Origin: a virus
DNA: 64,000 nt
Direction: 5' to 3' (one strand)
UHGV virus genome: UHGV-1451962
Positions 8,301-35,357 of the stretch are shown in pieces. The notes below the pieces were generated by a model. It saw only the letters and a list, made by a program, of their open reading frames with translations. It was not told the DNA's origin and made no database searches. The number at the start of each line of letters is the position of its first letter. Positions within the stretch are counted from its first letter, which is position 1. The position numbers were made by a program, and so were the translations under genes.

Positions 8301-11300
8301 AGAATCTAAAGATTCTTTATCTCTTGTTGAACAAGATGAGCTAGCTAATTTAAAACAGCAAGAAGCTTCTTTAGAGAGACAAGCTGATCTAAGAGAGCGT
8401 ATAGTTAAAGCTAAACAAGCAGAAATGGCTTATGCTATTGCAGATAATTTTGACAAAAAATATGACAAGACTTATAAGGTAGAGCCAAAAGGTAGAACTG
8501 GTGCTGACACTTCTAATTTTAAAACACAAGAAGATTTAGATAAATGGTATAATAGTTTAAATTCTGACCAACAGGCAAAAGCATTAGACCAATATCAGAA
8601 TTGGACGCAACAGATAGCAGAAGCTACTGCTCAAATGACTTCTGAAGTAGGAGAAGATTTAGCTGAATTAGAACAAGACTATGCTAATTATTTAGGTGCT
8701 GTTGATTCTGGAGCAATTGTGGCCGATCCGTCTAAGATTGCAGATATGCAGGATAAATTAGCAGAATTAAGAAAATTAATATATCCTACTGATAATCAGT
8801 ATTATGAAATGGTTATCCGTCCGGTATTAGATGATGAATCTTTTGATGAAGTAAGAGATAAGATTTTTAGAGCTTTATCTTCTGGAGATATTAAAGGTGC
8901 TGGATTAGCCTTAACAGATGAAATGCGTTCTGCCATTGAAGCTGCTGGAATTTCTGTTGATGATTTATTTAATCAAATTGCAGAAAGAATGTCTCAGGCC
9001 AGAGAGACCATTAAATCTGAAATGGGCGGTACCGAAGAGCAATTAAATAAATTAACTGCCGAAGATTGGGATATTATTCTTACCTTGGATTTAGAAAACA
9101 TTGGTTCTTTTAGAGAATTAATGAAAGCTATTGAAAATGCTAAAAATACAGACCTTAAAGTTAAAGTAGATACTTCTGAGTTAGATGCAGCAAAAGATAA
9201 AATAGAAAGTTTAAATACTAATGAAGAGCCATTGGAAAAAGCCTTGATGTCTTATAAAGAACAAGGTTATCTTACTATGGATCAGACTTATGAATTAATT
9301 AAAGCTAACGAAGAATATGCTCAATATATTAAAAAAGTTGGAGATGAGTATGTTTTAACTACTCAATCTTTAACTGACTTTACTGAAATGGAAAAAGCTG
9401 AGAAATTGGCTTTAGACCAAGCTATTGAAGCTATGCAAAACAAAGGTAAAGTTGATAGAGATTATGCTCAGCAGTATGTTGATCTTTATAGTAGTTTAAT
9501 TGAAAGTAGTAAAAATTGGTCTGACCAAGAACGTGCAGATAGCGGAGAAAATTTTGATAAAAATACTGAAGCACTTAGAAGACAAGCTCAAGCGTTCCAA
9601 GAAGGAAAGATTAGCGCAAGTGAATATTTTGATGCAATAAATCAAAGAGTTAGTGAAACTGGGGATAATTTTGCAAAATTAAGTGATGGTATAGATGGTC
9701 TTAAAGAATCTGATTATGCAAAAACTATGATTTCCTCTACTACTGCTTTGGCTGATGGTTTTAAAGATTTAATCAGTGAAGTTGAAGCTGGCGGTACTAA
9801 TATGCAAGAGTATTATGCTGGTGCAGTTAAAGGTACTAAAGCTTTAATGAATATCACTGCTAAATCTAATAAATATATCACCAAAACAGCAGATGGTTAT
9901 AAAGTTGTTACTGATAATATTGATGATGCAACTAAAGCTACACAAGACTACAAAGATGCTCAGAAAAAAGTTCAAAATTTAAATACTTGGGAAAAACAAG
10001 TTGATCAAGCTGAAGGATTTAAAAAAGCAATAGATGATATTACTTCTTATTATGATTATTTAAAAAATTATTTAAATGATAATAATTGGCTTGAGTTACC
10101 TGATAATTTTGATACAACAACAACCAAATTTAAAAATATGTGCGATACTATGGCTGCTGATATTTGGTCTTTAAAAGATACAAATGCTGAAGCTTTTAGT
10201 GCGATTATGGCTCACATGGAAACTGAAAATGCTGGTTTTGATTCTAGTTTAATTACTTCTCAAAGTCAATTAGCTAGTGCTATGCAAGGAAATGCAACAA
10301 TAGCTTCTTCTGCTATTAATGGTCTAGCTGCTCAAAGTCAGATTAGTATTGGTACTTTATGTCAAATTGGTGGACAGTTATTACAATCTTTGGCAAGTGC
10401 TATTAGCAGTTTTAGTTATACTATTCAGGCGACTGGTGTTGTTGATAATCCTGGTGGTATTGGTTTAGGCGGAGGATTAGTCGATAAAATTGGTGCTTTA
10501 CTTACAACAGGAGGGAAAATTCCTTTTGAATGGGATATGCCTTCTGCCCATATTGATTTAACAGGTTCTGGTTCTGGTGGTTCACCTATGTTTAGCACTA
10601 CTGGTTCTGCAAGAGCGCAAAAAGTTAATGGCTCTGGTAAATCAAATTATATTCGTTCAAAAGACACTGGTGCTGCTAGCAAAGGTGAGTCATCAGGACT
10701 TTTAGAAAATATTTCTAAATTTGGTACTGCATTAGAAGAATATGGTAAACAATCTGTATTGTCTCAAGGTTTAAAAGCATTTGCCCCTTCAGGAGGAGGA
10801 ACTGGTGGTAGAACTCTTAACCCTAGTGGTATTTCTACTGATAACAATCGTCCTTCTGGTGGAGGAGGAGGAAAAGGCAAAGGTGGTAAAGGAAAAGGCG
10901 GAGGTGGTAAAGGAAAGGGAGGAAAAGGAAAAGGCGGAGGTGGTGGCTCCGGCTCAGATGATTCTCCTGAAATCGAAGATGAAGAAATTTTTGATGATAG
11001 ATACCACGATATTAATAATAGACTAGAAGAACAAAGTCAGCTACTAGATAAGATTGATACTGCTAAAGATAGAGCTTTTGGTGTTAAGAAATTAGAAAAA
11101 TATAAAGAAAAAATTGAAGCAATTAATAAAGAACAAGAATTATATAAAGAAAAATTAAAAAAGACTGAGGAATATTTAAAAGAAGATTTAACTGATTTAC
11201 AAAAGAACTTTTCTGGTGTTAAATTAAATATAGACTCTGATAGTAAAGCTTTATTAAATTATGAAGATTTAGAAAAATGGGCAATAGAAGAATATAATAA

Positions 11301-13986: not shown

Positions 13987-16900
13987 ATGAATAATATATC
14001 AGAGCAAATTCTTCAAGCAGCTGATATTTTAGCGCAAAAAAGATTATCCGAATTAAAATATGATATAACAGTTCAAGGCACTGTTGAGTCTTTAGTTAAT
14101 TTAAATACTGGTGAATATAAAGTTAAATATAATGGTAATATATTTTCTGCTTTTAGTAATGATTTAAAAACTACTTATAGAATTGGAGATAATATTTATA
14201 TAAAAATTCCAGAAGGAGATTTTTCTAATAAAAAATTAATTGAAAATAAAGTTACTGATAAGTCTTTAACTGAAAATAATTTAAATGAGCTAGAAAATTC
14301 TGTTTCTCCTGTTGGGCCTACTTTTGATGTTTTTTATAATTATGACAAAATAAAAGAATATGGGGTAGTTGCAGGAGCACCCAAAGATGATAAATTGTCT
14401 ATTACAGAGATTTTCAACAGAGAAACTGTAAGTAATTTTTCCGATATTCCTTTTTTACAATATGCTAATAAATATGAATATATTAAAATTCAGGCCGATT
14501 TTTTAACACTCTTTAGTGATATTCATTCTGAGGGAAATTATGGCTTAGAATTGGCATTTTCATCTAATGGAGAAGATGTTTTTTATAGACTTGATGTTTC
14601 AAATTTTAATGGTAGTCCTTATTCTTTTAATACTTATAGCACGCAATCAGTTACTGTAAAAATACAAACAAAATTTTTAACTGGTTTAAAAAGTATTAAG
14701 TTATTTGAAGAAGGATTTCAATACGATAAATATTTATCTAATGGTGAATATATTTATTTAGATAAAGCAACAGGCAAAGAATTAATACATGATAATGAAA
14801 CCAATGAATATTATTATTTAAATGATAATAATGAAAAAATAATTGTAAATCAAGAGAATAGAATAGAAAAAATAAATGATAAATCACCGAATATTTTTGT
14901 TAAAAATATTCAAGTACAGTATGTAGAAGTAAAAAATTTAATAGACAATCTATATTATTTAAGAATTAAAACACCTAATGGTCAAATGTTTACAGACCAA
15001 ATAGATGAAATTACTTTACAAGGACAATTAATTTACAATGGCAATTCAGTTTTAACAGAAAAGAATAGTACCTGTTATTGGTATGAAAGAGATTATTCTG
15101 TGATGATAGGTGATGAGGCCTATGATAAAAATGTTGGTTTTGGATGGCGACCAATTTCCGCAAATTTTGATACTCTTGTTTTAAAAGATGAAGATGTGGT
15201 ATATAAAAAAGTATTAAAATTAATGGTAGTTTATTCTGATAATGTTGTAATGTCTGAAGAGATAGTTATTAGTAATTATAATACTGATTATAATTGTTGG
15301 CTAGAGCAATTAACTGTTGGAGATACTATTGATTTACATATTAAAAATAATAGAGATGAAGATGAATTAGTCGGTGATTGGTATTTATCTTTACCTGATG
15401 GAAGTTATCAAGAGGTACCTAATGGTAAACAAAAATCTGAAATAGAAGTTAAGCAATATCTTTTATATTCTGCTGTAACTTTTTATTGTAGTATTTATGA
15501 TAAAGATAGAAAAAATATTATTGCCACTGAAGAATATACAATCACTAATACTGAATCACAAGAAGATTTAAGTATAAAGTATATTGGAGAAGATTCTTTT
15601 AGATATGATTCTAATGGTGATATTACTATTGAGGATTCTGAAAAAGAACGTACTATTGAATGTCAATTTGCCTGGAAAGATGGAGTCGGCACTTCTTATG
15701 ATATGACATGGTATAGTCCAGATGGGAGTTTATTAACAACAGGTGAAAGAGTTAATCCTGTTGATTCAATGATAGAAAATCTCTGGGTTGACAAATATAA
15801 TATTTTGCATTATACTATTAAACAGAAGTATAAAATAAATTTTAACAATAATACTATTCAAATTAAAGTTACTACTTTAGACCAAAAGGAATATATTTTT
15901 AATAAAGAAATTCTTTTTGTTAAAGATGGTGATCAAGGTACTAATGGTACTACTTATATCGCAGCTATTCGTCCTTGTGATGATAATGGTATTAAATTAA
16001 GTGGTTTACAGCCTTTGGTTTTTAATCCTTTAACCAAAGAGCTTTTAGATGAACAAGAAAGGATTAGAAATGATAATACTCTTTCTAATGAAGAAAAAAT
16101 AAAACAAATTTTAGAAGTTAGAAAAAGAGGATGGAATACTTTAAAGTTAAGAGTGTATGTTTATAAAGATGGAGAATTAATCAATAATTTAAATGGTAAT
16201 AAATATACTATTAAATATGAATGGTCTGGGACAAATATAAAATTACCTGAAGCAGAAACTGATGATGAATATATTAGCATTTCCGGCAATAGTGATCCAG
16301 TTATAAACTTTTATTCTACTTCTGATAAATATGAATTTTATATAAAAATTAAAATAACTGTTAGAGAAAAAGCAGGAGATTCTACTGTTTATCTTTATTC
16401 TATTTATCCTATTGATGTTGCAGTTAATGGTTTTGAATATAATAGAGTTGACATAAATGAAATTCCTTCTTATATTAAATATAATTCTTCTGGTTTAAAT
16501 CCTTCTTTTTATAGTAATGCTTTAAAATATACTTTTGATGAAATAGATCAAACTAAATTAGTAGAATCATTAAATAAAGATATTTTAGTAATTGAAGATA
16601 AACAACAAAAGGAATCTGAAATTATAGATAGATATTTAGTACCTTCTTCTAATTTTATTTTTGAAAGAGATTCAGATAAAAATAATAGTAGTATTGGTAT
16701 TTTAAAATGCCCCGACCCGCAATATAATACTAGATATTTATTACACTCTATTGTTATGTATCTTGATACATATGGCAATGAAGCTATTAATGGCTGGGAT
16801 GGAACACAGTTAGATATAGATAACAAAGGCCAATATGTTTTTGCCCCGCAGGTTGGTGCAGGTACTAAAAATGAACAAAATCAATTTACCGGCGTTGTTA

Positions 16901-18306
16901 TGGGTAAAGATAGCGGGCAGAAAAAAATTGGTTTATATGGTTATCAAAATGGTATTACTACTTTTGGTTTAATGCAAGATGGTTCTGCATTTTTTGGTGC
17001 TTCTACTAGCGGAAGAATTAATATTGATGGAACAAAAGCAAATATTTATGGCGGTTTAACAGAAAATGGCGCAAATAGTATGAAATTAACTTTATCTGAT
17101 ATGCGGATGACTGGTAGTACAAAAGCTATTAATATTAATGATTCAAAAGGTGAATCTGCTTTTTATGTAACTTATAATGGTTATATGTATGCTAATAATG
17201 TTAAAATAAAAGGTAATGTTGAAGCAACCACTTTAACAGCAACTAAAAGCGGCAAGATAGCTGATTTTACTATTGATTCAACTGGATTAAGAGGAGGTTC
17301 AATTACTTGTAGAAATTTAGTTGCTAACACTGATGGAGAAATTGCTGGTTGGAAAATTACTGGGCAAAGTTTAAAAAGTCCTAACGCTTCAGTAAATCAG
17401 CCTTCTGAGGCGGGAGGAGTGCCAACTTGGACAGGCACTACTTTAAATAGTAGTGGACAAATTTATACTCAGAAATTATATGCAAGTGGTGGAGATATTG
17501 GTGGCTGGCAGATTAATTCTACTAATTTATACGGAAGTGCTGAAGGAAAATTTCAAAGTATTACTTATGATGATGAAGGTAATATGAGTGTATCTGAAAT
17601 AACAGGTATTAAATTTACTGAATTACAAAAAGGCGGCCAGATTAAAACCAATACAGTACAAATTTTTAGTGATCCACAAGCTGAAGGACAAATAGGGAAT
17701 TATATTGGATATATGGGTCTTGTCTACGGAAGCACTACCAGTAAAGATACTACATATAACATAGGTATATATAGTCTTACTGGTGCTCGTCTTGAAGCTA
17801 AAGGAGATATAGCAATAGCCGCAGGAAAAGGTAGTATTTGGATGCATGGTAATATAATGGCGAGAAAAGGTTTTTATTGTGGAAATAGTTCTAATATTGA
17901 TAATTTAGATAAAAAATTTCTTGTTGAAAATAGAATTATTAGACTGGGTGCAGAGACAGATGCTGACCAATTGTATATTAGAAGTTCTTGGTTAGTTTTA
18001 AAAGATGATGGAATGTCTATTAAAAAGCCTACAACAATTACAAAAGATGTAACAATTTCTGCTAATCAAAAATTAAGTTTGTCTGGAAATGGTTATATTT
18101 CAACTCCAACTATACAGACTGATAAAATTCAACCAGTGGGTAAAGAGACTGGTACAATAACAGTGAGTGGAACTATGAGCGGTAGTTTTAAGGGTAGTCT
18201 TTCTACATCAAGTGGTTATTATTATAATAGTAGTGGAGCTTACACAAAACTTTTAGCAGGTAGTATAATAGATGATAGTATTAAAGTTTTTGCTAAATTT
18301 TCGTGA
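13987..18306 (+). CDS. large tail-tip / central-fibre structural protein (1439 aa)
   Basis: SD AAAGGAGTTTATA-ATG, directly downstream of the tape measure. The C-terminal region has repeated ..GEIAGWKITGQSL.. / ..GDIGGWQINSTNLYG.. motifs of the kind seen in phage fibre and tail proteins (from memory). Confidence 0.6.
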   Translation: MNNISEQILQAADILAQKRLSELKYDITVQGTVESLVNLNTGEYKVKYNGNIFSAFSNDLKTTYRIGDNIYIKIPEGDFSNKKLIENKVTDKSLTENNLNELENSVSPVGPTFDVFYNYDKIKEYGVVAGAPKDDKLSITEIFNRETVSNFSDIPFLQYANKYEYIKIQADFLTLFSDIHSEGNYGLELAFSSNGEDVFYRLDVSNFNGSPYSFNTYSTQSVTVKIQTKFLTGLKSIKLFEEGFQYDKYLSNGEYIYLDKATGKELIHDNETNEYYYLNDNNEKIIVNQENRIEKINDKSPNIFVKNIQVQYVEVKNLIDNLYYLRIKTPNGQMFTDQIDEITLQGQLIYNGNSVLTEKNSTCYWYERDYSVMIGDEAYDKNVGFGWRPISANFDTLVLKDEDVVYKKVLKLMVVYSDNVVMSEEIVISNYNTDYNCWLEQLTVGDTIDLHIKNNRDEDELVGDWYLSLPDGSYQEVPNGKQKSEIEVKQYLLYSAVTFYCSIYDKDRKNIIATEEYTITNTESQEDLSIKYIGEDSFRYDSNGDITIEDSEKERTIECQFAWKDGVGTSYDMTWYSPDGSLLTTGERVNPVDSMIENLWVDKYNILHYTIKQKYKINFNNNTIQIKVTTLDQKEYIFNKEILFVKDGDQGTNGTTYIAAIRPCDDNGIKLSGLQPLVFNPLTKELLDEQERIRNDNTLSNEEKIKQILEVRKRGWNTLKLRVYVYKDGELINNLNGNKYTIKYEWSGTNIKLPEAETDDEYISISGNSDPVINFYSTSDKYEFYIKIKITVREKAGDSTVYLYSIYPIDVAVNGFEYNRVDINEIPSYIKYNSSGLNPSFYSNALKYTFDEIDQTKLVESLNKDILVIEDKQQKESEIIDRYLVPSSNFIFERDSDKNNSSIGILKCPDPQYNTRYLLHSIVMYLDTYGNEAINGWDGTQLDIDNKGQYVFAPQVGAGTKNEQNQFTGVVMGKDSGQKKIGLYGYQNGITTFGLMQDGSAFFGASTSGRINIDGTKANIYGGLTENGANSMKLTLSDMRMTGSTKAININDSKGESAFYVTYNGYMYANNVKIKGNVEATTLTATKSGKIADFTIDSTGLRGGSITCRNLVANTDGEIAGWKITGQSLKSPNASVNQPSEAGGVPTWTGTTLNSSGQIYTQKLYASGGDIGGWQINSTNLYGSAEGKFQSITYDDEGNMSVSEITGIKFTELQKGGQIKTNTVQIFSDPQAEGQIGNYIGYMGLVYGSTTSKDTTYNIGIYSLTGARLEAKGDIAIAAGKGSIWMHGNIMARKGFYCGNSSNIDNLDKKFLVENRIIRLGAETDADQLYIRSSWLVLKDDGMSIKKPTTITKDVTISANQKLSLSGNGYISTPTIQTDKIQPVGKETGTITVSGTMSGSFKGSLSTSSGYYYNSSGAYTKLLAGSIIDDSIKVFAKFS

Positions 18307-26916: not shown

Positions 26917-26926
26917 TAAAAATAAA

Positions 26927-26962
26927 ATGGGTAAGAGCTAAATGCTCTTACCCATTTTTTTG
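26927..26962. terminator. bidirectional intrinsic terminator between convergent units
   Basis: ATGGGTAAGAGC (26927-26938) pairs with GCTCTTACCCAT (26944-26955). It is flanked by an A-run on the left and a T-run on the right, so it can terminate both the + strand fibre gene and the - strand DGR-side operon. Confidence 0.8.
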
Positions 26963-26964
26963 TT

Positions 26965-27402
26965 TTATATAATATGATAATAAGGTTTTTCTTCATCAAA
27001 GATTTTCCATCTAAGAAAATCATCTAAAATAATTCCTATTAGACCTAGAATAAACCAAAGACAACTAAAAGATAAACATATTTGTCCTTTATAATTAAAA
27101 GGTAAATGTGAATAATCCCAAATATTAAGTTGTAATTGAATGTTTAAAATATATCCAAATAAAAATTCTAAACTTGTTATAATTGCGGTTCCAATTAATC
27201 CTTGAGCCAATAAAGACCAATTCCAAGGAATATTTTCATTTAAGCTACCTAAAATTAAAAAAGATAAACCGCCTAAGATAAACATTGACCAATGAGTATT
27301 TCCTGAATGTATATATGTTTTGTAAACAAATTCAATTAACCAGTAAATACTTCCGCCAATCAAAAATAATATAGAATTTCTAAAAAAAGAATTAATTTTC
27401 AT
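26965..27402 (-). CDS. polytopic membrane protein (about 4 TM helices), last gene of the DGR-side operon
   Basis: 145 aa with four long hydrophobic stretches: SILFLIGGSIYWLIEFVY, WSMFILGGLSFLILGSL, LLAQGLIGTAIITSLEFLFGYIL and ICLSFSCLWFILGLIGIIL. Its start overlaps the end of the upstream gene by 11 nt. Confidence 0.6.
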   Translation of the reverse strand: MKINSFFRNSILFLIGGSIYWLIEFVYKTYIHSGNTHWSMFILGGLSFLILGSLNENIPWNWSLLAQGLIGTAIITSLEFLFGYILNIQLQLNIWDYSHLPFNYKGQICLSFSCLWFILGLIGIILDDFLRWKIFDEEKPYYHII

Positions 27403-28051
27403 ATTTTAATTCTATGGCTTTAATTTCCTTATAATTTTTAGCAGTATAAATTTGTGTTTTATATTGTTGCATTTTTTTATAATAAGGATAAACAAAATCA
27501 GAAATAGCTAAAGCTAAAGCAGTCAAATTTTCAACTGTCCAAGATGTACATTCTTCTTGGCGAGCATGCCATTCTAATCTAGGATTCTCTGCTCCAGCCT
27601 GAACTGCCATAGAATATTGATTCATATTTAGGCTAATTTCTGATTGATCTTCTTCTGTAACTCCATATTGCTTTCCATCAATCCAAGTCAAAGGATTATT
27701 AATGAGGAAATTAGCGAAAGCTTTTTTATTTTCTTCTTGTTTCATTTTTTGATATTCTTCTAAAGAATAGTAATATGTTAATTCATTTTTTTCATTATCA
27801 TATTTATAAAAATTAGGTTCATAATCTTCTGGAATATTACCATCAAAAGATAAGATTCTTACTGCATCAATAGAACCTGTCATATCTGAATTAGCCAAAA
27901 TGAAATGGCTATTGCAATCTGAGCCTATTACTCCTGTAGCTTCACCTTCCGAGCAAGCAATGACAATACTTGGGTTGGATTGTAATTTGATGTAGCGGAT
28001 TTCCGCAAGGATATCGACTACTATATTTTCTCTATTGATTAATAAATACAT
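27392..28051 (-). CDS. hypothetical protein; C-terminus resembles DUF4376-type phage (fibre-associated) domains
   Basis: 219 aa. Its ATG overlaps the RT stop (TAATG). The C-terminal ..TWIDGKQYGVTEEDQSEISLNMNQYS..WTVENLTALALAISDFVYPYYKKMQQYKTQIYTAKNYKEIKAIEL pattern recalls DUF4376 (from memory). Confidence 0.4.
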   Translation of the reverse strand: MYLLINRENIVVDILAEIRYIKLQSNPSIVIACSEGEATGVIGSDCNSHFILANSDMTGSIDAVRILSFDGNIPEDYEPNFYKYDNEKNELTYYYSLEEYQKMKQEENKKAFANFLINNPLTWIDGKQYGVTEEDQSEISLNMNQYSMAVQAGAENPRLEWHARQEECTSWTVENLTALALAISDFVYPYYKKMQQYKTQIYTAKNYKEIKAIELKYEN

Positions 28052-29307
28052 TATAATATTTCAACTCCTTTAAATAATGAATGGAAATAATTATCAAGAT
28101 TTTGTATAATATAAAAAGTAGTACCTTTATTTATATGTTCTCTAAAACCTCGATATGATTCTTGAATTTCTATATCAGTTATTTTACCTTGTAGCCAAAG
28201 TTGGTGCATTTTTCTCATTTTTCTATATTGTCGCTTTATTTTCTTTTTAAATGGAGTTTGAATAATTTTATTCGTATTAGTTAAATAAAAATCCCATTTT
28301 AAATATTTAAATGGATTATGTTTATCCGAACGTCTTTTATGAGGATAATTATTTTTATCTAGTTTTATTGGACTAATTTTAATTATTTTAGTTTTTCTTT
28401 TGTTACATTTTAAATGTATTTTATTTAATTCATTTTCAATTTTATTAAGACATTCTTTTAAATAATCTTTGTCATTATGCAAAATATAAATATCGTCCAT
28501 ATAACGTCCATAATATTTTAAATGCAAATGCTCTTTTGCATAATGGTCAATTCCATTTAATGCCAATAAAGCTAATAATTGAGATGCTTGACTACCTAAA
28601 CCTAAACTTTTATGATTAAATTCATAATAAGTACAATTTTTATAAAATTGTTTAGGATAAATTATCTTATATTTTTGTTTTTTGATGATATAGTATTGTT
28701 TATTAGGAATAGGAACTGTATCTTTTGTGACTGAAAAACAAAAGGTATCAATAATATAATCAATTAATTTAAATACTCGTTTTTCTTTAATATAATGTTT
28801 TGCCATTTGCTTTAAAGAATTATGGTCTATTGAATCAAAAAATTTTTGAATATCAATTCTTAAACCATAAAAAGATTTTCCTAAACCATATGTTCTGTGC
28901 GCTGCTTGTAAATGTTTACGCACTTCTAGCAAAGCAAAATCAATTCCTTTTCCTTTTAATGTAGCACAATTATCATAAATAAATTTTGGAGTTAGTTCTG
29001 GAATAAGAACTTGCGAACATAATGTATTTTGTGCCAATCTGTCATAAATATGGCACGCTCTTATATCTCTGGGTTTGCCCCGCTCAATTATACTAAAACT
29101 GTTAAAAACTAATTGTTCATAACTGTCATTTTCTAATTGTTCTTTAAGCGTTAAGATGTTATTTAATCTATTTTCTTCAAAATTAACTGTACTATCTTTC
29201 CATCTTACGTTTCGGCAAATAGAATAAGAAGAATCATAAAAAGCGTCAAAATTACAAAAACGCTGGAAAAGATTTTCTTCTATAAAAAATTCTCCTTTTT
29301 TTATCAT
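28051..29307 (-). CDS. DGR-type reverse transcriptase
   Basis: 418 aa with the YMDD catalytic box (..YGRYMDDIYILHND..) and the SLGLGSQASQLL segment matching the G-x-x-x-S-Q signature of DGR RTs. RT motifs 1-2 are present (..ERGKPRDIRACHIYDRLAQ..). It lies 282 nt downstream of a TR that matches a VR. Confidence 0.9.
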   Translation of the reverse strand: MIKKGEFFIEENLFQRFCNFDAFYDSSYSICRNVRWKDSTVNFEENRLNNILTLKEQLENDSYEQLVFNSFSIIERGKPRDIRACHIYDRLAQNTLCSQVLIPELTPKFIYDNCATLKGKGIDFALLEVRKHLQAAHRTYGLGKSFYGLRIDIQKFFDSIDHNSLKQMAKHYIKEKRVFKLIDYIIDTFCFSVTKDTVPIPNKQYYIIKKQKYKIIYPKQFYKNCTYYEFNHKSLGLGSQASQLLALLALNGIDHYAKEHLHLKYYGRYMDDIYILHNDKDYLKECLNKIENELNKIHLKCNKRKTKIIKISPIKLDKNNYPHKRRSDKHNPFKYLKWDFYLTNTNKIIQTPFKKKIKRQYRKMRKMHQLWLQGKITDIEIQESYRGFREHINKGTTFYIIQNLDNYFHSLFKGVEIL

Positions 29308-29589
29308 GCGGTGCTAGATTGTGTGCTCTGACACGCACATCCGCAATCTTAATTAATTATCTGTATAGATAAAAGGTTAAATTCTCCTTAAATGAAAGCT
29401 ATCTATTATAATCTAAGTCTTTTATTTAATATTTCCTCTCCTTCTTGGTTTTAAAACCAATGCGTCCAGAAAATACCAAAATAGATGAGTTATAACATAG
29501 GTTATAATTTTCTGGGGTAACACTTAGTCGTCTCAGTCGATGTCGCCTGCGGCTCCATCACCAGAGACAGTTAGAGTTCTCATCTAATC
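29308..29589 (-). ncRNA. TR-RT spacer; probable structured part of the DGR RNA
   Basis: No ORF. It contains a GC-rich segment next to the TR with GTCTC(29530-34)/GAGAC(29564-68) and GATG/CATC pairings. It also contains nested stems CCAGAAAAT(29466-74)/ATTTTCTGG(29507-15) and TTATAAC(29490-96)/GTTATAA(29501-07), a 16-nt perfect palindrome at 29445-60, and a GC-rich element (29308-29345) abutting the RT ATG. Confidence 0.5.
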
Positions 29590-29693
29590 GGGCGCGAGGT
29601 AATTGTTGTTGTTGTAGTTGGTATTGTTCGCATTACCATCAGAGTTGACATTGCACACATTGTTCGTGTTGTTCGAGTTGTAGTAGCGAGACC
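29590..29693 (-). repeat. DGR template repeat (TR)
   Basis: 104-nt match to 30388..30491 with 83 identities. On the coding (-) strand it reads as about 15 AAY codons (..TAC AAC TCG AAC AAC ACG AAC AAT GTG TGC AAT GTC AAC..). It is non-coding and lies between the Avd-like ORF and the RT. Confidence 0.9.
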
Positions 29694-29726
29694 CGCGATA
29701 TTTTAGAATTTAACCAAATAAAAAAA

Positions 29727-30191
29727 TTATTTGTATCGCTGAGAATAAATTAGATTATCTCTATTTATTCTATCAAGAAGATTTTGTTTTAATTTGTAAG
29801 TAAGTTTAGCAACATATTTGAAAGATTTATTTTTCTTTTTATTATTTAACCCATATTCATAAATACATAAATCTAATTGCCTTAAAATTGAATCACAATA
29901 TCTTATTGATTTATTAAAGTAATCTGCTCTTTCAACTAAAGTTTTTTTATTTTTTAGATTGATTAAACTAGCAGAGAAAGCATATCCATGTGCGTTTTTG
30001 GCACATTTTAAAATATCTGCACCAAAAGCTGAATAATAGTATGGATTACCAAGAATACCTGGTTTAATATGAGAACCATCATCTAATTCTTGATATGGAC
30101 GAACTAAAATTAATACTTGATGGACTAACTTTCTTGCATCATTTAAATAATCATTTTTAGATTGATGCCTATCTTTTTTTCTTACTGACAA
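29727..30191 (-). CDS. avd: Avd-like DGR accessory protein (by position, size and basic helical composition)
   Basis: 154-aa K/R-rich ORF with a TTG start 7 nt after AAAGGAGG. It occupies the canonical slot between target gene and TR. No sequence motif verified. Confidence 0.5.
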   Translation of the reverse strand: MSVRKKDRHQSKNDYLNDARKLVHQVLILVRPYQELDDGSHIKPGILGNPYYYSAFGADILKCAKNAHGYAFSASLINLKNKKTLVERADYFNKSIRYCDSILRQLDLCIYEYGLNNKKKNKSFKYVAKLTYKLKQNLLDRINRDNLIYSQRYK

Positions 30192-30225
30192 ATTAAAAAC
30201 CTCCTTTAAATAACGTACAAGAAAT

Positions 30226-30254
30226 ATTATACCAGAAAATTTTTAAAAAGTCAA
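30226..30254 (-). promoter_or_regulatory. consensus promoter for avd-TR-RT
   Basis: On the - strand: TTGACT (30254-30249), a 17-nt spacer ending in TGG, then TATAAT (30231-30226), about 35 nt upstream of the avd start. Confidence 0.65.
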
Positions 30255-30315
30255 AGAAAAAAAATTTTTAGAAAAAATTTTTTTCCCAGAAAAGGTGAAA
30301 GCATTTTTATACTAT

Positions 30316-30341
30316 GGCATTGGCCCTTTTGGGCCAATGCC
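30316..30341. promoter_or_regulatory. perfect GC-rich hairpin/cruciform just 3' of the VR
   Basis: GGCATTGGCCC (30316-30326), TTTT loop, GGGCCAATGCC (30331-30341). It lies 29 nt beyond the target stop codon. No U-tract follows on either strand. Confidence 0.6.
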
Positions 30342-30369
30342 AATATAACCTTACTGTATAACTTTACAG

Positions 30370-32133
30370 TTATCCAATAACGAAAGCGGGCGCGAGGTAA
30401 CGGTAGTTGGCGTAGTAGGTAAAGTCCGCACCACCATCAGAGTCGACACGGCACACATAGCCCGTGTAGTCCGAGTAGTAGTTGCGAGACCGCTCCCAAT
30501 ACCATTTGGAATCTCCTGAACTGTTACCATTAGCATCTTGAATGTTTTTTATACGGGAGCTGTCACTTGTGTAATAATCATAAGCAGCATTATATCCTTT
30601 AGTACATTCTGCATTGGAAACAGTAGAATTAGCAGTGCTGATTGGAGAATAACTATCTAATCCCATTTCTCTCTCAGAAGGAATCCAAACAGTTTCGTTA
30701 TTATAACTAACATTAGCACTTCTATTATCATCCCAATTATCGCAAGTACCTTTAGATACTGTTTTTATAGATGCTTTAGCAGCACAAGCATTATAAAAAT
30801 TTTGACAATAACTTCTAGCATTAGAACCAATCCATTGTGCGCTATTATCACCAAAAGTAGTCATATTCGGCAAGAGATAAACACTATGAAAAGCTAAAGT
30901 TTTATCTCCATCTTTGTCATAGCCAATACAACGCATTGTAACAGCATTTGCTCCTAAAACATTAGTAGATAAATTCATCTTTTTAGTTTTACCAACTAAA
31001 GCTTGACGTTCTGAAGCAGAAGAATTGTTAAGCCAAGACTTTAAGCCAGCCCACCAAGAAGCATCTCCCGCAGCACTCTCATTTCCCCAAGTCCAATATG
31101 TAGCAGTAGCAGTAATTTTTTTATTCGCGGGAGTTGTATAATTGGTACTGGCTGCTATTGATACAGTAATAGTAGCAGTTCCCGCGGTTGTACCATTGCC
31201 TTTAATGGTAATTGTTTTACCGCTTACTGTTGCTGAAGCCACATTAGAATTAGTAGAAGTTACAGAAATTGTACCAGTAGAATTAGTGGTCACAGTAACT
31301 TTTACACCAGTAGAATAATTAGATGCGTCAATAGAAACAGTAGAAGTGCTTAGACTTAATGTTCCTGTTGCTTTTTGAATAGACCAATCAACATTTTTCG
31401 CGGTTGTTGTCTTATCAGGCCATCTGTAATTATTTTTAGGAGTAAAAGTAGCTGTATATTTTCCTGCATTAATTCCCGATGTAGTTCCTCCAATAGTCAT
31501 GTAACTTGTATTATAATTTGACCAATTTGGACTTTGCGAATTGGCGTTATAAGTTAAAGTTCCAGTTTGAGAAGGAATAGGAACTGTTTTTCTTTCTACT
31601 GTTACAGAAAAAGTAGTAGTTTTAGTAATACTATTTTCTGTATAAGAAACAGTAATTGTTTGAGTACCAACTGTATTTAAAACAGAAGGTGAAGTTGTCC
31701 AACCAGAAACAGTAGCGGTTTTACCATCAGAATAAGTGGCAGTAACAGACATTCCGGCAGATTCAAATGTCTCGCCATATTCATAAATTGTCTTAGTTGG
31801 TTTTGTGCTTGTGATGCTGGTTAGTGCATGGATAACAGTAACTGCTTGCTCGGCGGTACAAGTAACTCCTCCTTCAGAGTAAGTAATAGTAACTTTAGTT
31901 ACTCCATCAGTTAAAGGAGAAGGTGTTACAGTATATCCAGTTACCGCAGTAGAAGAAACAACAATATTATCAATGGCATAATTGGCAGTTATAACCATTC
32001 CTGTTGTTTCAAATTCTTGTCCAGCAACGTAAGATGTACGGTTTGGTGGAGTAGTAACTTCAATAGAGTGGAGTGCTATTGAGCTTCCGCCACCTTTTCC
32101 GCCTTGTTCAGTTAAAATGCATTTAACAGGCAA
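30370..32133 (-). CDS. DGR target protein: Ig-like repeats plus a C-terminal lectin-fold-like variable domain (putative receptor-binding or fibre protein)
   Basis: The track ORF 30370..32154 begins inside its own SD (TTG ATA AGG AGG). The more likely start is the TTG at 32133, 9 nt after GGAGG. There are repeated ~90-aa segments (..VTGYTVTPSPLTDGVTKVTITYSEGGVTCTAEQAVTV.. / ..VSGWTTSPSVLNTVGTQTITVSYTENSITKTTTFSVTV..). The C-terminus ..WYWERSRNYYSDYTGYVCRVDSDGGADFTYYANYRYLAPAFVIG is the VR. Confidence 0.85.
   Translation of the reverse strand: MPVKCILTEQGGKGGGSSIALHSIEVTTPPNRTSYVAGQEFETTGMVITANYAIDNIVVSSTAVTGYTVTPSPLTDGVTKVTITYSEGGVTCTAEQAVTVIHALTSITSTKPTKTIYEYGETFESAGMSVTATYSDGKTATVSGWTTSPSVLNTVGTQTITVSYTENSITKTTTFSVTVERKTVPIPSQTGTLTYNANSQSPNWSNYNTSYMTIGGTTSGINAGKYTATFTPKNNYRWPDKTTTAKNVDWSIQKATGTLSLSTSTVSIDASNYSTGVKVTVTTNSTGTISVTSTNSNVASATVSGKTITIKGNGTTAGTATITVSIAASTNYTTPANKKITATATYWTWGNESAAGDASWWAGLKSWLNNSSASERQALVGKTKKMNLSTNVLGANAVTMRCIGYDKDGDKTLAFHSVYLLPNMTTFGDNSAQWIGSNARSYCQNFYNACAAKASIKTVSKGTCDNWDDNRSANVSYNNETVWIPSEREMGLDSYSPISTANSTVSNAECTKGYNAAYDYYTSDSSRIKNIQDANGNSSGDSKWYWERSRNYYSDYTGYVCRVDSDGGADFTYYANYRYLAPAFVIG
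30388..30491 (-). repeat. DGR variable repeat (VR), encoding the last ~35 codons of the target protein
   Basis: Pairs with the TR. There are 21 differences; 20 are at positions where the TR coding strand has A, and 14 of 15 TR AAY codons differ. The shared GC-rich 3' end CCTCGCGCCCG is IMH-like. Confidence 0.9.
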
Positions 32134-32199
32134 GGTATAAGACCTCCTTATCAAGAATTATTATTAGAGTTTTAAAACTCCATCATTATTTATAGAATA

Positions 32200-32211
32200 A
32201 AGTACACCTTT
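32200..32211. repeat. left arm of a perfect 12-bp inverted repeat (AAAGTACACCTT)
   Basis: Reverse complement of 32384..32395. Together the arms bound a 196-bp segment in the divergent intergenic region. Confidence 0.9.
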
Positions 32212-32239
32212 TAGATTAATTGGGAACGTACTTTCCATA

Positions 32240-32287
32240 AAAAATGTAAAATTGGGAAAAGGATATAAAAATATCCTTTTCCCAATA
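32240..32287 (-). terminator. perfect 16-bp-stem hairpin that acts as a terminator only for leftward transcription
   Basis: ATTGGGAAAAGGATAT (32252-32267), AAAA loop, ATATCCTTTTCCCAAT (32272-32287). Read on the - strand it is followed by TTTACATTTTTT. Read on the + strand it is followed by ATAAAAATAT, with no U-tract. Confidence 0.5.
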
Positions 32288-32308
32288 TAAAAATATATTC
32301 TAAAAGTT

Positions 32309-32337
32309 TGGATATCTTATCCTTTTCATCTATACTT
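32309..32337 (+). promoter_or_regulatory. promoter directed at the 32425 fibre gene
   Basis: TTGGAT (32309-32314), a 17-nt spacer, then TATACT (32332-32337). It lies inside the IR-bounded segment. Confidence 0.5.
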
Positions 32338-32383
32338 AAAGATTATTTTAATTAATTTTCCTTAGATTGACCAATGTTTCATA

Positions 32384-32395
32384 AGGTGTACTTTT
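32384..32395. repeat. right arm of the 12-bp inverted repeat (AAGGTGTACTTT)
   Basis: Perfect reverse complement of 32200..32211. Confidence 0.9.
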
Positions 32396-32424
32396 TAAAC
32401 TTATATTTTGAAAGGAGTTTTTAA

Positions 32425-34170
32425 ATGGCTGTTCAATGTGTACTTGTCGGAAAAGGCAAGGATGATGTATTTACTGCTGTTTATGGCGAAACTACATTTG
32501 ATAAAGTGTTAAAAGCTTATAATGAAAATAAAGTAGTTCAAGTGATTTATCAAAATCGTATTTATTATTTAGATAATACTACTGTTGTAGATTCTCCTGA
32601 AGCATTTTCTTTTATTTCTGCTTTTAGTAATCAAAATGATGAAGCTGGTGAAATAAAGCATTATGTAATAAGTTTAATGACAGGAGATAGTTGGTCTGGG
32701 CCTTTCTTACAGAAATCTACTCCAGCAACTCACGCGAATACTCATAGTAAAAATGGTGATGATCCACTTACCCCCGCAGATATTGGAGCTATGGAATTAT
32801 CAGAAAATGTTCTTAAACAATCAAATGAAGATATTACTTCTCAAGTAGCGCAAGCTTTATTTGGGGATTTAGTTCCTTTTAGCGGTGGAACCATGACTGG
32901 TTTGTTAAATGTTCTTACTCCTGTTAGAGATAGTAATGCTACTACTAAAAAGTATGTAGATGATGCTTTGAGTGAGAAAATTGGAATGGATGGCATTGGC
33001 GATTTGCATGTATGGAAGAAGACTATAATAACAAAACAGGAGATTCCAGCAAGTTTTACTTTAGGTGATGTACACTCTGGTTCGTTTCGTTTTGTTAGTG
33101 GTGAAACTAATGTGTTGTTAGTAGGTACTCCTAAAGTTAATGAGAGTGGTGTCGTTACCTTAACAAACTCTGCGCAGTATAATTTTAATTATAATTCTTC
33201 ATCTCCTAGTATATCTGATCTGCGAGGACAGTATTGCATGTTTACCATGATAGCCGATCAATTTTCTAGTTTTACTGCCAATAAAGTTTTTTATATACCC
33301 ACTGATGCAAACTATATTTCTTTATCAAGTTCTAAAAATATTACTAAATATCAAGATGTTAATGGTACACCTAAAATTCCTGCCGAAGTAACTACTACCT
33401 ATCCCGCATCTACTAATCCCAATGCGTATCAAGAGGGGAGCGATGCAAAACCAGCAGGATATGTACTTGGTAATGTGATAACAGGTTCATTTTGTATTGG
33501 TAATACAACAGCACCTACGAGAGCTGCTTATTATGTCGCATCTGATATTTCTGTATCTGATAATGGTGTTTTATCTATTTCAACACAAACAAATATAACT
33601 ATTGGTGGTAATTTTTTTGTATCTAGCCGTGATTTAATTGCTGGTAAATTTATACAAATTTATAATAAAGGGTCTATGTCTTCTGTTTTATCTGAACCAT
33701 TCACAACAGTACCAGGCCCAATTATTTATATTCCGAATGATGTAAACTTAACGTCTGGCGGTGATGGAAATTTAAATTTATATATTGATCGCTACCAACC
33801 TATTACTGGCTACGCTGCTATCCCCGCAGGCACCACTATTGAATATCTGGGGAAGTTGGGAGATAAGACTAGGGTAATAATTGGCTCGTATATTGGGACA
33901 GGGGTCTGCGGGGCAGAGAATCCGACCAAAATAAAAACGAGTTTTTTACCGAAACTTGTAGCAATAAATGGAGTAGGAAATACCGGCAGTACGGGCATTA
34001 TTCTGTTTTTTCGAGATATGAACTATGCGTTCTCAGAAATCGGCTCAAGTACCAACTTTAACTTTACTAATATAACCTGGTTATCAGACGGAGTACATTG
34101 GTATTCTAGCAAAGTCCTTATGCAGGGGAATAAGCAGGGGGCAATTTATAAATACATTGTTATCGGTTAA
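32425..34170 (+). CDS. tail fibre protein (581 aa)
   Basis: SD GAAAGGAGTTTTTAA-ATG. It contains ..THANTHSKNGDDPLTPADIGA.. and ..FSGGTMTGLLNVLTPVRDSNATTKKYVDDAL.., motifs typical of phage tail fibres (from memory). The C-terminal ~125 aa have a distinct, GC-richer composition. Confidence 0.7.
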   Translation: MAVQCVLVGKGKDDVFTAVYGETTFDKVLKAYNENKVVQVIYQNRIYYLDNTTVVDSPEAFSFISAFSNQNDEAGEIKHYVISLMTGDSWSGPFLQKSTPATHANTHSKNGDDPLTPADIGAMELSENVLKQSNEDITSQVAQALFGDLVPFSGGTMTGLLNVLTPVRDSNATTKKYVDDALSEKIGMDGIGDLHVWKKTIITKQEIPASFTLGDVHSGSFRFVSGETNVLLVGTPKVNESGVVTLTNSAQYNFNYNSSSPSISDLRGQYCMFTMIADQFSSFTANKVFYIPTDANYISLSSSKNITKYQDVNGTPKIPAEVTTTYPASTNPNAYQEGSDAKPAGYVLGNVITGSFCIGNTTAPTRAAYYVASDISVSDNGVLSISTQTNITIGGNFFVSSRDLIAGKFIQIYNKGSMSSVLSEPFTTVPGPIIYIPNDVNLTSGGDGNLNLYIDRYQPITGYAAIPAGTTIEYLGKLGDKTRVIIGSYIGTGVCGAENPTKIKTSFLPKLVAINGVGNTGSTGIILFFRDMNYAFSEIGSSTNFNFTNITWLSDGVHWYSSKVLMQGNKQGAIYKYIVIG

Positions 34171-34730: not shown

Positions 34731-35357
34731 GTGAAAAAGGTGTTATATGGTTATGCAAGAGTTTCTTCCCGCGACCAAAATATAGATAGACAAATAATTG
34801 CATTAAAAGAGGTCGGCGTAGAAGAAGAAAATATCTTCATAGATAAACAATCAGGTAAAGATTTTAATAGACCTTCTTATCAAGAATTATTAGAAACAAT
34901 TAAAACAGGAGATATGGTAATTATAAAATCCATAGATAGATTAGGTCGAAATTATTCAGAAATTTTAGAACAGTGGAGAATTATTACTAAAGTTCTGAAT
35001 GTAGATATTAAAGTTATTGATATGCCGTTACTCGATACCTCCTACGGGGATGGTACATTAAATAACTTTATAGCTGATTTAGTTTTACAAATTCTCTCTT
35101 TTCAGGCAGAACAAGAGAGAATTTGTATTAAACAGCGACAAGCAGAAGGAATAGCTGCTGCAAAACAAAAAGGAGTTAAATTTGGCCGACCCCGCAAACA
35201 GCTTCCTTCTAATTTTGAAGATTTATATTATAGATATTTAAATAATGAACCAGTGGATAGATTATCAAAAGATTGTAAAGGATTATCTAAATCTACTTTG
35301 CGGTTGCGACTACAAGAACGTCATTCTAAAGATAAAGCATTGGGTGTAATTATTTAA
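34731..35357 (+). CDS. small serine recombinase (resolvase/invertase family)
   Basis: 208 aa with a GTG start after SD GAGGTGAAAAAG. The N-terminal catalytic region is VLYGYARVSSRDQNIDRQ...DRLGRN, and there is a C-terminal HTH-like region after ..GVKFGRPRK... The size and layout match the Hin/Gin/resolvase type, not a large serine integrase. Confidence 0.85.
   Translation: MKKVLYGYARVSSRDQNIDRQIIALKEVGVEEENIFIDKQSGKDFNRPSYQELLETIKTGDMVIIKSIDRLGRNYSEILEQWRIITKVLNVDIKVIDMPLLDTSYGDGTLNNFIADLVLQILSFQAEQERICIKQRQAEGIAAAKQKGVKFGRPRKQLPSNFEDLYYRYLNNEPVDRLSKDCKGLSKSTLRLRLQERHSKDKALGVII

Follow-up and report, generated by a model that had tools for sequence, protein, structure and literature searches.

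A diversity-generating retroelement (DGR) that is canonical and, with high confidence, currently active lies on the minus strand of UHGV-1451962, a human-gut phage of ~137 kb; the window, the whole stretch of DNA analysed here, is 64,000 nucleotides long. An earlier note had claimed a complete set of DGR parts, and every part is present, in the minus-strand order target gene with variable repeat (VR), hairpin, promoter, 154-aa open reading frame, template repeat (TR), spacer and reverse transcriptase (RT). The part sizes given there were near-exact, with the spacer being 281 nt rather than 282 and the TR 105 nt rather than 104. The DGR is a well-known type of system, and elements like it are common and catalogued in gut phages. 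This cassette is kept in ~40 related contigs, several of them in IMG/VR, and about 30 related loci have the cassette together with adenine-specific TR/VR pairs. The cassette proteins in GenBank carry only the label 'hypothetical'.

The template and variable repeats

The TR (29589..29693, minus strand) is non-coding, contains 38 A and is abundant in AAC and AAT codon-equivalents, and the VR (30387..30491, minus strand) comprises the last ~35 variable-region codons of the target. Repeat finding reported 108 nt, and strict homology between TR and VR covers 105 nt. The two differ at 22 positions, 21 of which are TR adenines (binomial P about 4e-9); the sole mismatch away from a TR adenine is T>A. 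The pair is real and adenine-specific, and no second VR was found within the window.

Comparison of related and conspecific contigs demonstrates that the element is active in nature. The TR is identical in seven conspecific contigs (0/104 polymorphic columns), and these contain seven different VRs, in which 31 of the 33 polymorphic columns fall at TR adenines. Relatives L009-L014 and L016-L024 have one TR in common and a different VR in each. In several assemblies, breaks occur inside the VR or the TR.

The target gene and its lectin domain

The target gene (30370..32133, minus strand) encodes 587 aa from a TTG at 32133 that is backed by a Shine-Dalgarno (SD) sequence, the same start that the earlier note had chosen; the frame is open over 32154..30370, or 594 aa when counted from the first TTG (32154). 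The protein has Ig-like (Big_3) domains and then, at its C-terminus, a DUF6273 / C-type-lectin domain. The VR domain adopts a C-type-lectin fold, and its structural matches include the DGR target TvpA. The VR-encoded codons are followed by an invariant C-terminal LAPAFVIG. The 23 variable codons allow about 3e22 possible peptides, and no stop codon is reachable by adenine changes. DUF6273 has been described as a DGR target domain, with the VR at its C-terminus, in Faecalibacterium phages (PMC11792537), and the window target is 31-32% identical to Faecalibacterium and Roseburia phage targets over residues 185-593.

That a ligand-binding protein is being hypervaried, in line with the receptor-binding role suggested previously, finds support in the C-type-lectin fold that contains the VR and in the tail genes around the target gene. 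Because the varied domain tips an Ig-rich protein encoded among tail and fibre genes, the likely effect of VR variation is altered virion binding. The protein would then be carried on the virion and present its lectin domain to a ligand, and it is probably the primary receptor-binding fibre. It is possible, if on balance unlikely, that the DGR is active and the target is instead an accessory virion adhesin of the Hoc-like or 'tentaclin' type, with mucus, glycans of the host or secondary receptors as possible ligands. Such a protein would fit the run of several Ig-like domains ending in a lectin domain, the failure to find a fibre-anchoring or trimerisation domain in the target or a match to its sequence in the PDB, its membership of PHROG 37900, a family with no assigned function, and the location of the gene in its own module, transcribed against the tail operon; the tentaclin paper offers the same alternative for DGR targets that combine Ig and C-lec domains (PMC10743442). 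The target gene is, however, flanked by tail/fibre-looking genes, paralogous DUF6273 domains occur in neighbouring fibre-region genes of relatives, and the N-terminus of a related target, from a Faecalibacterium phage, resembles a tail fibre (PMC11792537), all of which favour a receptor-binding fibre.

The reverse transcriptase

The RT gene (28051..29307, minus strand) encodes 418 aa when read from the ATG at 29307, and matches RVT_1 (7e-15) and phrog_1423 (3e-75). The LGSQASQ motif is found at residue 237, YMDD at 269. The 418-aa RT of the earlier note thus stands as to its reading frame, YMDD and signature motif, but its start codon is uncertain. Translation more likely begins at ATA 29283 (~410 aa), 8 nt past the SD AAGGAG, a codon that is ATG in relative L032. 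Only when the A tract has a length of seven (A7) does the upstream ATG share the RT frame; among 12 distinct contigs of the species, 8 have A5, A8 or A9 instead.

The lack of an SD-backed canonical start and the variable tract could mean that the DGR is decayed or switched off in the window genome, with its parts kept, the RT poorly or not translated and the VR frozen. The window, L028 and L029 do share an identical VR, and the T>A difference from the TR lies off adenine. This reading is nonetheless improbable, given that the RT frame is intact over ~410 codons with all catalytic motifs, that the RT is only 5% polymorphic among strains and that the TR is perfectly conserved. Moreover, strains of every A-tract length carry different adenine-specific VRs, so at the level of the species diversification goes on.

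The best PDB match of the RT is the BPP-1 DGR enzyme bRT (8UB7, E 3.7e-13), whereas a group II intron RT scores 1.8e-4 in the same search; by BLASTP, the RT matches BPP-1 Brt with an E of 2e-17 at 23% identity. The enzyme thus belongs to the DGR class, with bRT as its nearest solved relative. Among the closest annotated phage matches are RTs of Faecalibacterium and Roseburia phages (27-30% identity), and unannotated human-faecal phage contigs give slightly higher identities, up to 32%. An RT of another class (group II intron, retron or Abi/DRT) beside a 108-nt repeat that is an ordinary duplication is effectively refuted: there are weak, sub-threshold matches to group II maturase, Drt3a, retron, generic RT and DRT models, but those to NCBIfam/PADLOC lie far under the curated cut-offs (85.7 vs 300 bits; 54 vs 200), an Rfam search found no intron RNA or msr/msd family, and the bRT match, the DGR-type LGSQASQ, the adenine bias and the natural VR turnover all speak against it.

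The protein in the Avd slot

The gene in the Avd slot (29727..30191, minus strand) encodes a basic protein of 154 aa (pI 9.8). The AF2 model (pLDDT 92) is a four-helix bundle, and Foldseek with this model gives 2RLD and 2GSC as top matches (prob 1.0, TM 0.84, target-normalised); 2GSC belongs to PF05635 and is homologous to bAvd (PMC10053308). By this predicted fold the protein appears closest to the Avd/IVS family. The assignment to the Avd slot thus holds for the reading frame and the fold but not for a match to Avd at the sequence level: no match was found in Pfam, NCBIfam, PHROG, PADLOC or PDB sequences, and comparison to bAvd by hhalign gives a probability of 0.7%, with no detectable sequence similarity. 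An exhaustive profile search returned only 33 proteins of the Avd-slot type, with PF05635 in 0 of 10 scanned (nine weak, one strong). The family is confined to the clade of the window phage.

Hairpin and promoter

The perfect GC-rich hairpin reported earlier is present (30316..30341, minus strand; GGCATTGGCCC-AAAA-GGGCCAATGCC), with a stem of 11 bp, or 12 bp with the flanking T-A, that is 73% GC, and a DNA fold z-score of -5.9. It lies 42 nt after the VR. Hairpins of other phage DGRs have a GRNA loop and a 4-34 bp range (Guo et al. 2011; PMC3240598), and the window hairpin is outside both traits, with its AAAA loop and its distance from the VR. Conservation of the hairpin sequence was not found in relatives. 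By analogy, the hairpin is a candidate for the DGR target-recognition hairpin/cruciform.

A TTGACT-17-TATAAT promoter with a TG extended -10 was confirmed at 30254..30226 on the minus strand. It is the best promoter-like site in the region, matches the sigma-70/sigma-A-type consensus at 11 of 12 positions, as a consensus match only, and is placed to drive avd-TR-spacer-RT.

RNA layout and proposed mechanism

The 281-nt spacer (29308..29588, minus strand) and the TR flanks can be folded, on the minus strand, into a series of helices. Just 5' of the TR, GGUUAAAUUCU (29705..29715) is the 5' strand of a long-range duplex with the spacer, resembling the 'cPRT Stop' of BPP-1; this duplex, found in a complementarity scan, has 11 pairs, 7 of them changed on both sides across 11 sequences. 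Immediately 3' of the TR, UUAGAUGAG (29579..29587) is the template-side strand of a predicted template:primer duplex and pairs with 29396..29388 (9 pairs, of which 6 changed on both sides; pairing in 96% of cells). The partners of both are contiguous at 29375..29396, where UUCAUUUAA, the primer-side strand, is followed by an invariant GG and then by AGAAUUUAACC, the 3' strand of the Stop-like duplex. The MFE fold places a three-part stem-loop (29530..29568) right after the TR flank, and homologous helices covary in relatives. Further on, a small stem-loop (29370..29359) and then an A-rich stretch precede a long terminal stem-loop (29346..29307), which extends up to the start of the RT; compensatory changes occur in 4/4 pairs of the small and 4/5 of the terminal stem-loop. 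For the whole model, 95% of cells are paired, with compensatory changes in 29 of 42 pairs, as compared to 36-51% paired in slid controls. Covariation across 11 relatives supports a cis-priming layout like that of BPP-1.

The RNA of BPP-1 has an Avd-binding stem-loop (Handa et al., bioRxiv 10.1101/2023.10.23.563531), and the three-part stem-loop sits at the corresponding place. In BPP-1, Sp47-56, G57 C58 and Sp59-70 follow in that order, and then a Stop stem-loop with adenosines and a bRT-binding stem-loop (bioRxiv 10.1101/2023.10.23.563531). The window RNA is alike in its stem-loop after the TR, TR-flank:spacer duplex and 2-nt linker starting with G, and also in its upstream:spacer duplex, small stem-loop, A-rich stretch and terminal stem-loop; the last three may, by their matching position, have the same functions. 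The BPP-1 spacer is 140 nt, and its primer-side strand lies at nt 47-56 rather than about 195 nt into the spacer.

In the mechanism that we propose, the promoter would produce a transcript with the Avd-like gene, the TR, the structured spacer and the RT gene, to which the RT and the basic four-helix-bundle protein would bind. The 9 nt 3' of the TR would pair with the spacer segment about 195 nt downstream to form the template:primer duplex and, past the two invariant G, the next 11 spacer nucleotides would pair upstream of the TR, such that the template is looped as in the cis-priming and 'cPRT Stop' RNA of BPP-1. The TR would then be copied to cDNA with random incorporation opposite adenines, and the outcome would be variation of the 23 codons on the DUF6273 domain at the tip of the Ig-domain-rich protein.

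Comparison with known systems

The prototype, BPP-1 (mtd-avd-TR-brt), has the same one-strand order of target, accessory gene, TR, spacer and RT, and likewise has adenine-specific mutagenesis, a homologous RT, a C-type-lectin-fold domain with the VR at its C-terminus, and a GC-rich repeat end with a hairpin downstream. In contrast to BPP-1, the window cassette is antisense to the tail operon, its accessory protein lacks detectable sequence similarity to bAvd, its RT is longer at the C-terminus and has a ~35-aa insertion between conserved palm motifs, its hairpin differs in loop and distance, and its Ig-rich, DUF6273-containing target is unlike Mtd (hhalign probability 0.1%). TvpA of Treponema denticola and other C-type-lectin/FGE-fold DGR variable proteins also have no sequence similarity to the window target.

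The nearest phage DGRs are from the Faecalibacterium phages Taranis, Pioen, Roos and Lelie and the Roseburia phage Shimadzu, which are also phages of gut Clostridia with the VR at the C-terminus of DUF6273 (PMC11792537). Those phages are temperate, with genomes of ~45-55 kb as compared to ~137 kb, and their DGRs differ from that of the window by low protein identities and a different accessory protein family.

Genomic setting

The Firmicutes-type host suggested in the earlier note is plausible and is hinted at by these phage DGRs, by a DNA polymerase that is 38% identical to YorL of Bacillus SPbeta, in a genome with SPbeta-like replication genes, and by one related 2.9-kb contig binned in an uncultured Eubacteriales MAG. 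The neighbours of the minus-strand module are tail/fibre-like genes. Within the module, the RT stop is overlapped by the start of a gene for a 219-aa DUF4376 protein (27392..28051, minus strand; Pfam DUF4376 2e-5), which every relative also has downstream of its RT. The last gene, for a small CmpB-like membrane protein of 145 aa (26965..27402, minus strand; PF06541, Pfam 2.7e-14; phrog_20274), is likewise syntenic in relatives. A bidirectional terminator-like hairpin (26924..26958, both strands) closes both the plus-strand tail operon and the minus-strand DGR module.

Target gene and repeats

The cassette is a canonical and naturally active diversity-generating retroelement (DGR), and the earlier note was correct to call it complete, but it is much less unusual than that note judged. 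The target ORF, on the minus strand, is open from a TTG at 32154 to a stop at 30370. An AAGGAGG Shine-Dalgarno (SD) sequence lies upstream of a TTG at 32133, which gives a protein of 587 aa and matches the start coordinate that the earlier note had put to an ORF of about 590 aa. A direct repeat of 108 nt (29586-29693 and 30384-30491) consists of a non-coding copy, the template repeat (TR; 29589..29693, minus strand), and a coding copy, the variable repeat (VR; 30387..30491, minus strand), which forms the 3' end of the 587-aa ORF. Read on the minus strand, the two copies differ at 22 positions, 21 of which are TR adenines (A>G 10, A>T 7, A>C 4) and one of which is a T>A change, so the adenine-specific differences expected of such a pair are present. 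Given 38 adenines in 108 nt, the binomial P for this bias is 4e-9. A scan of the window found no second or remote VR.

The TR contains 23 variable codons, mostly AAC or AAT, from which about 3e22 peptides can be generated with no stop codon reachable. The GC content rises from 30% in the window to 46% in the TR and 58% in the VR, and both repeats share the GC-rich 3' end CCTCGCGCCCG. Together with the compact target signals, this TR makes the cassette one more candidate scaffold for engineered hypermutation.

A perfect GC-rich hairpin and a TTGACT-17-TATAAT promoter were recovered as previously described. The hairpin (30341..30316, minus strand) is GGCATTGGCCC-AAAA-GGGCCAATGCC. Its 11-bp stem is perfect, its loop has 4 nt, its distance to the VR is 42 nt, and its fold is far stronger than those of shuffled sequences (z -5.9). 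The hairpins of phage DGRs are reported to have GC-rich stems of 7-10 bp and GRNA tetraloops, and to lie 4-34 bp past the VR (Guo et al. 2011, PMC3240598), whereas the window hairpin departs from these in stem length, loop and distance. Hairpins at the corresponding place in related loci differ, some being AT-rich, such that the window hairpin is not conserved. Given that it is not followed by a U-tract, it is not a classical terminator, and a role in target recognition is plausible. The promoter (30254..30226, minus strand) has an extended -10 TG and outscores every other promoter-like site within 5.7 kb.

Checked against the lectin-fold domains in which VRs are known, the C-terminal 236 aa of the target protein match DUF6273 and are modeled with a C-type-lectin fold (pLDDT 97), with Ig-like domains (Big_3) upstream. 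DUF6273 with the VR at its C-terminus has already been described for the DGR targets of Faecalibacterium phages (PMC11792537). In the target gene, the 300 nt that directly precede the VR (30491..30792, minus strand) are 21% polymorphic relative to conspecific contigs L038-L045, as compared to 4-6% for the Avd-like gene, spacer and reverse transcriptase (RT) among conspecific contigs. Therefore, the lectin domain also diverges by non-DGR means, possibly via recombination with paralogous DUF6273 fibre genes.

Evidence of natural activity

Turnover of the VR with a fixed TR is observed among contigs from different samples. The strongest evidence is from the species of the window, in which the Avd-like protein is 100% identical and seven contigs from different samples were compared. 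Their TRs are identical (0 of 104 columns polymorphic), but they carry seven different VRs, with 31 of the 33 polymorphic VR columns at TR adenines. In the comparison regions, the spacer is 3.8% and the RT 5.1% polymorphic; these are aligned counts, as ungapped counts are inflated by indels.

The same pattern extends beyond the species. About 1,900 relatives of the RT are present in metagenomes, many on contigs of 140-150 kb, and about 30 related loci were fetched from IMG/VR, ENA and Logan. Every fetched locus that holds both repeats has a TR/VR pair with essentially all mismatches at TR adenines, and the order target-Avd-like-TR-spacer-RT-DUF4376 is kept in every one that extends far enough. 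In one related lineage (L009-L014 and L016-L024), a single identical TR is accompanied by a distinct VR on each contig. Assembly breaks fall inside the VR or TR in L005, L006, L018, L019, L027 and L030, from which we only infer an effect of population heterogeneity on the assemblers. The understanding of DGRs is not changed by the window cassette, which is of a canonical kind already known elsewhere in phages.

Reverse transcriptase

The RT matches RVT_1 and the phage RT family phrog_1423 (3e-75), and carries LGSQASQ at residue 237 and YMDD at residue 269. Its best relative in the PDB is bRT (Brt), the RT of the prototype DGR from Bordetella phage BPP-1 (8UB7, E 3.7e-13), with a group II intron RT behind at 1.8e-4. 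By BLASTP it is 23% identical to Brt (E 2e-17), from which it differs by an insertion of about 35 residues between conserved palm motifs. An identity as a group II intron, retron or Abi/DRT enzyme was rejected, as the family-model scores are far under the curated cut-offs (TIGR04416, 85.7 against 300; Drt3a, 54 against 200; St85 retron model, 28.7 against 235). No Rfam family of any kind, whether for intron domains, msr/msd or the spacer, was found in 27500..32600. With bRT as the closest solved match, both motifs in place and the other families below threshold, these comparisons favor the DGR-type RT that had been proposed.

The start of the RT gene is less conventional. An in-frame ATG at 29307 lacks an SD, falls within a conserved RNA motif and owes its frame to an A7 tract; it is unlikely to be the true start. 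The SD AAGGAG stands 8 nt ahead of ATA GAA GAA AAT, a stretch that corresponds in the alignment to ATG GAA GAA AAT of the related locus L032; the related locus L006 has ATT at the same position. The most economical reading of these sequences is that the RT starts at a near-cognate AUA codon.

The poly(A) tract, within 29283..29307 (minus strand), is located between a conserved CAUGAU motif and the RT SD, and in a comparison with loci L027-L029 and L036-L045 it varies in length as A5, A7, A8 or A9. Of 12 distinct conspecific contigs, 8 have A5, A8 or A9. Phase variation at this tract was considered and rejected, given that the 4 of 12 contigs in frame are what chance would predict.

Spacer RNA and proposed cis-priming

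The spacer between the TR and RT (29588..29308, minus strand) is conserved and structured. A complementarity scan shows pairing, in every lineage, between the spacer and the 11 nt or so that immediately precede the TR (an 11-nt segment), even as the sequences differ: GGUUAAAUUCU with AGAAUUUAACC in the window, and GGUCAAGUCUU with AAGACUUGACC, GGGCAUAUUCU with AGAAUAUGUCC and GGUUAAAAUCU with AGAUUUUAACC in the related loci L001, L031 and L035, respectively. Two nucleotides (an invariant GG) upstream of the spacer strand of this duplex is a segment complementary to the 9 nt 3' of the TR. Here the TR flank and spacer strand are UUAGAUGAG and UUCAUUUAA in the window, UAAACAAAA and UUUUGUUUA in L031, AAAACAAAU and AUUUGUUUU in L032, and CAAGAUGGA and UCUAUCUUG in L035. 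Covariation was counted over seven helices in an alignment of 11 sequences. Compensatory pairs number seven in the 11-bp upstream:spacer duplex and six in the 9-bp TR-flank:spacer duplex. Over all seven helices, 95% of cells are paired and both partners change in 29 of 42 pairs. None of 500 shuffles reaches those values, and sliding the partners by 1-3 columns lowers pairing to 36-51%.

The elements follow in the order of a stem-loop directly after the TR flank, the TR-flank:spacer duplex, a 2-nt linker that starts with G, the upstream:spacer duplex, a small stem-loop then an A-rich stretch, and a long terminal stem-loop. In the BPP-1 DGR RNA, as determined by cryo-EM, an Avd-binding stem-loop is followed by the template:primer duplex (Sp47-56), G57 and C58 and the cPRT Stop duplex (Sp59-70); the stem-loop and adenosines of the Stop come next, and a stem-loop that binds bRT comes last (Handa et al., bioRxiv 10.1101/2023.10.23.563531). 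The window spacer RNA has the same order, but its spacer is 281 nt rather than 140 nt, with the primer-side strand about 195 nt into it. This match in element order argues for cis-priming: by analogy to BPP-1, cDNA synthesis would be primed from the spacer near 29388 and proceed into the TR through its GC-rich 3' end. The covariation independently supports the conservation of the BPP-1 cis-priming RNA architecture in distant DGRs, with a spacer twice as long.

Both the primer-like CAUCUA and the TR-flank-like UAGAUG occur twice in the spacer. The second primer-like copy, CUCAUCUA at 29489..29482 (minus strand), is also complementary to the TR flank, and the second TR-flank-like copy is AUAGAUAGC at 29398..29406 (minus strand). 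In the window lineage and L035, changes in the extra CAUCUA track those in the TR flank; L031 and L032 lack this copy. Because CAUCUA is duplicated, the TR flank can pair with either copy, and the four spacer and flank segments could pair in two alternative ways, although an alternative conformer is speculation. It would be a long shot to suppose that the DGR of this clade has layers not described for BPP-1, in which a two-state RNA and weak RT translation jointly gate the timing of hypermutation. If so, the near-cognate RT start (AUA in the window, AUU in L006) behind a poly(A) tract of variable length would hold translation of the RT at a very low or variable level.

Avd-like protein

The 154-aa basic ORF reported in the Avd slot is present, with a pI of 9.8, and its position, size and charge fit Avd. 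The suggested comparison with bAvd, the BPP-1 accessory protein, gave no link by sequence (hhalign probability only 0.7%). Profile searches of Pfam, NCBIfam, PHROGs, PADLOC and the PDB found no match, and a profile search run exhaustively over 1.84 billion representatives returned only 33 proteins, with PF05635 in none of the ten scanned (nine weak, one strong). The AlphaFold model (pLDDT 92) is a four-helix bundle with a beta-hairpin insertion, for which the top Foldseek matches are the Avd/IVS-family structures 2RLD and 2GSC (probability 1.0, TM 0.84 normalised to the target). 2GSC represents PF05635 and is considered a homologue of bAvd 4DWL (PMC10053308). Given these fold matches and its position, the protein is called Avd-like, as a putative family member on the basis of a predicted structure. 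An accessory protein that resembles Avd yet escapes every sequence profile is of possible interest to specialists, since profile-based DGR callers may record such cassettes as having no accessory gene.

Phage context and genetic code

The window is phage DNA, encoding virion and tail proteins, NrdD, a PolC/DnaE-type polymerase, RecJ, DnaB and topoisomerase II, from a source genome of about 137 kb. The DNA polymerase is 38% identical to YorL of SPbeta, and thin evidence points to a Firmicutes-type host, probably a gut member of the Clostridia. A search with the cassette DNA found no match in 50,697 phage genomes. Relatives are present in IMG/VR, and in GenBank the RT cluster (with a 371-aa member) and the Avd-like protein appear only as 'MAG TPA: hypothetical protein [Caudoviricetes sp.]'. 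Therefore, the genomes are catalogued but the cassette is unannotated there. With this cassette, a little-studied clade of large (about 137-150 kb) human-gut phages with SPbeta-like replication genes gains a naturally active DGR that is well documented.

Relatives L001-L026 and L031-L035, with RTs 60-65% identical to that of the window, are recoded. In their homologues of the tail, fibre, RT, Avd-like and recombinase proteins of the window, every one of the 827 in-frame stops is TAG, and in 51% of cases the window protein has Gln at the aligned position. A suppression gate at the amber codons after the RT start in these code-15 phages was rejected, as such codons are found across every gene. 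No in-frame TAG was found in the window phage or its own species, which therefore use the standard code; the stops of the 59 window ORFs of at least 100 aa are TAA in 46, TGA in 12 and TAG in one. The window phage thus keeps to the standard code within a clade that has code 15 sister lineages.

The DGR module is closed by a bidirectional terminator-like hairpin at 26924..26958, and it runs opposite to the tail genes in each of the related loci that keep a flanking gene. A serine recombinase or DNA invertase (34731..35357, plus strand; Resolvase domain 3e-30, PHROG 'DNA invertase' 7.5e-51) is encoded just after the fibre genes and is kept in relatives. Inversion of the DGR module by this enzyme was rejected, because no flanking inverted repeats were found and the related loci with a flanking gene all have the module in one orientation, none of them inverted. 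The genes between the invertase and the DGR target vary by lineage, with a 581-aa fibre in the window and DUF6273 proteins elsewhere.

Upstream of the tail genes on the plus strand are two very large ORFs, of 1439 aa (13987..18306), without a PHROG match, and 2871 aa (5317..13932). The divergent intergenic region between the DGR target and the plus-strand fibre gene contains a perfect 16-bp palindrome (32251..32286), ATTGGGAAAAGGATAT-TTTT-ATATCCTTTTCCCAAT. It scores as a minus-strand terminator, where no minus-strand transcript is expected to end, and may be an operator or insulator.
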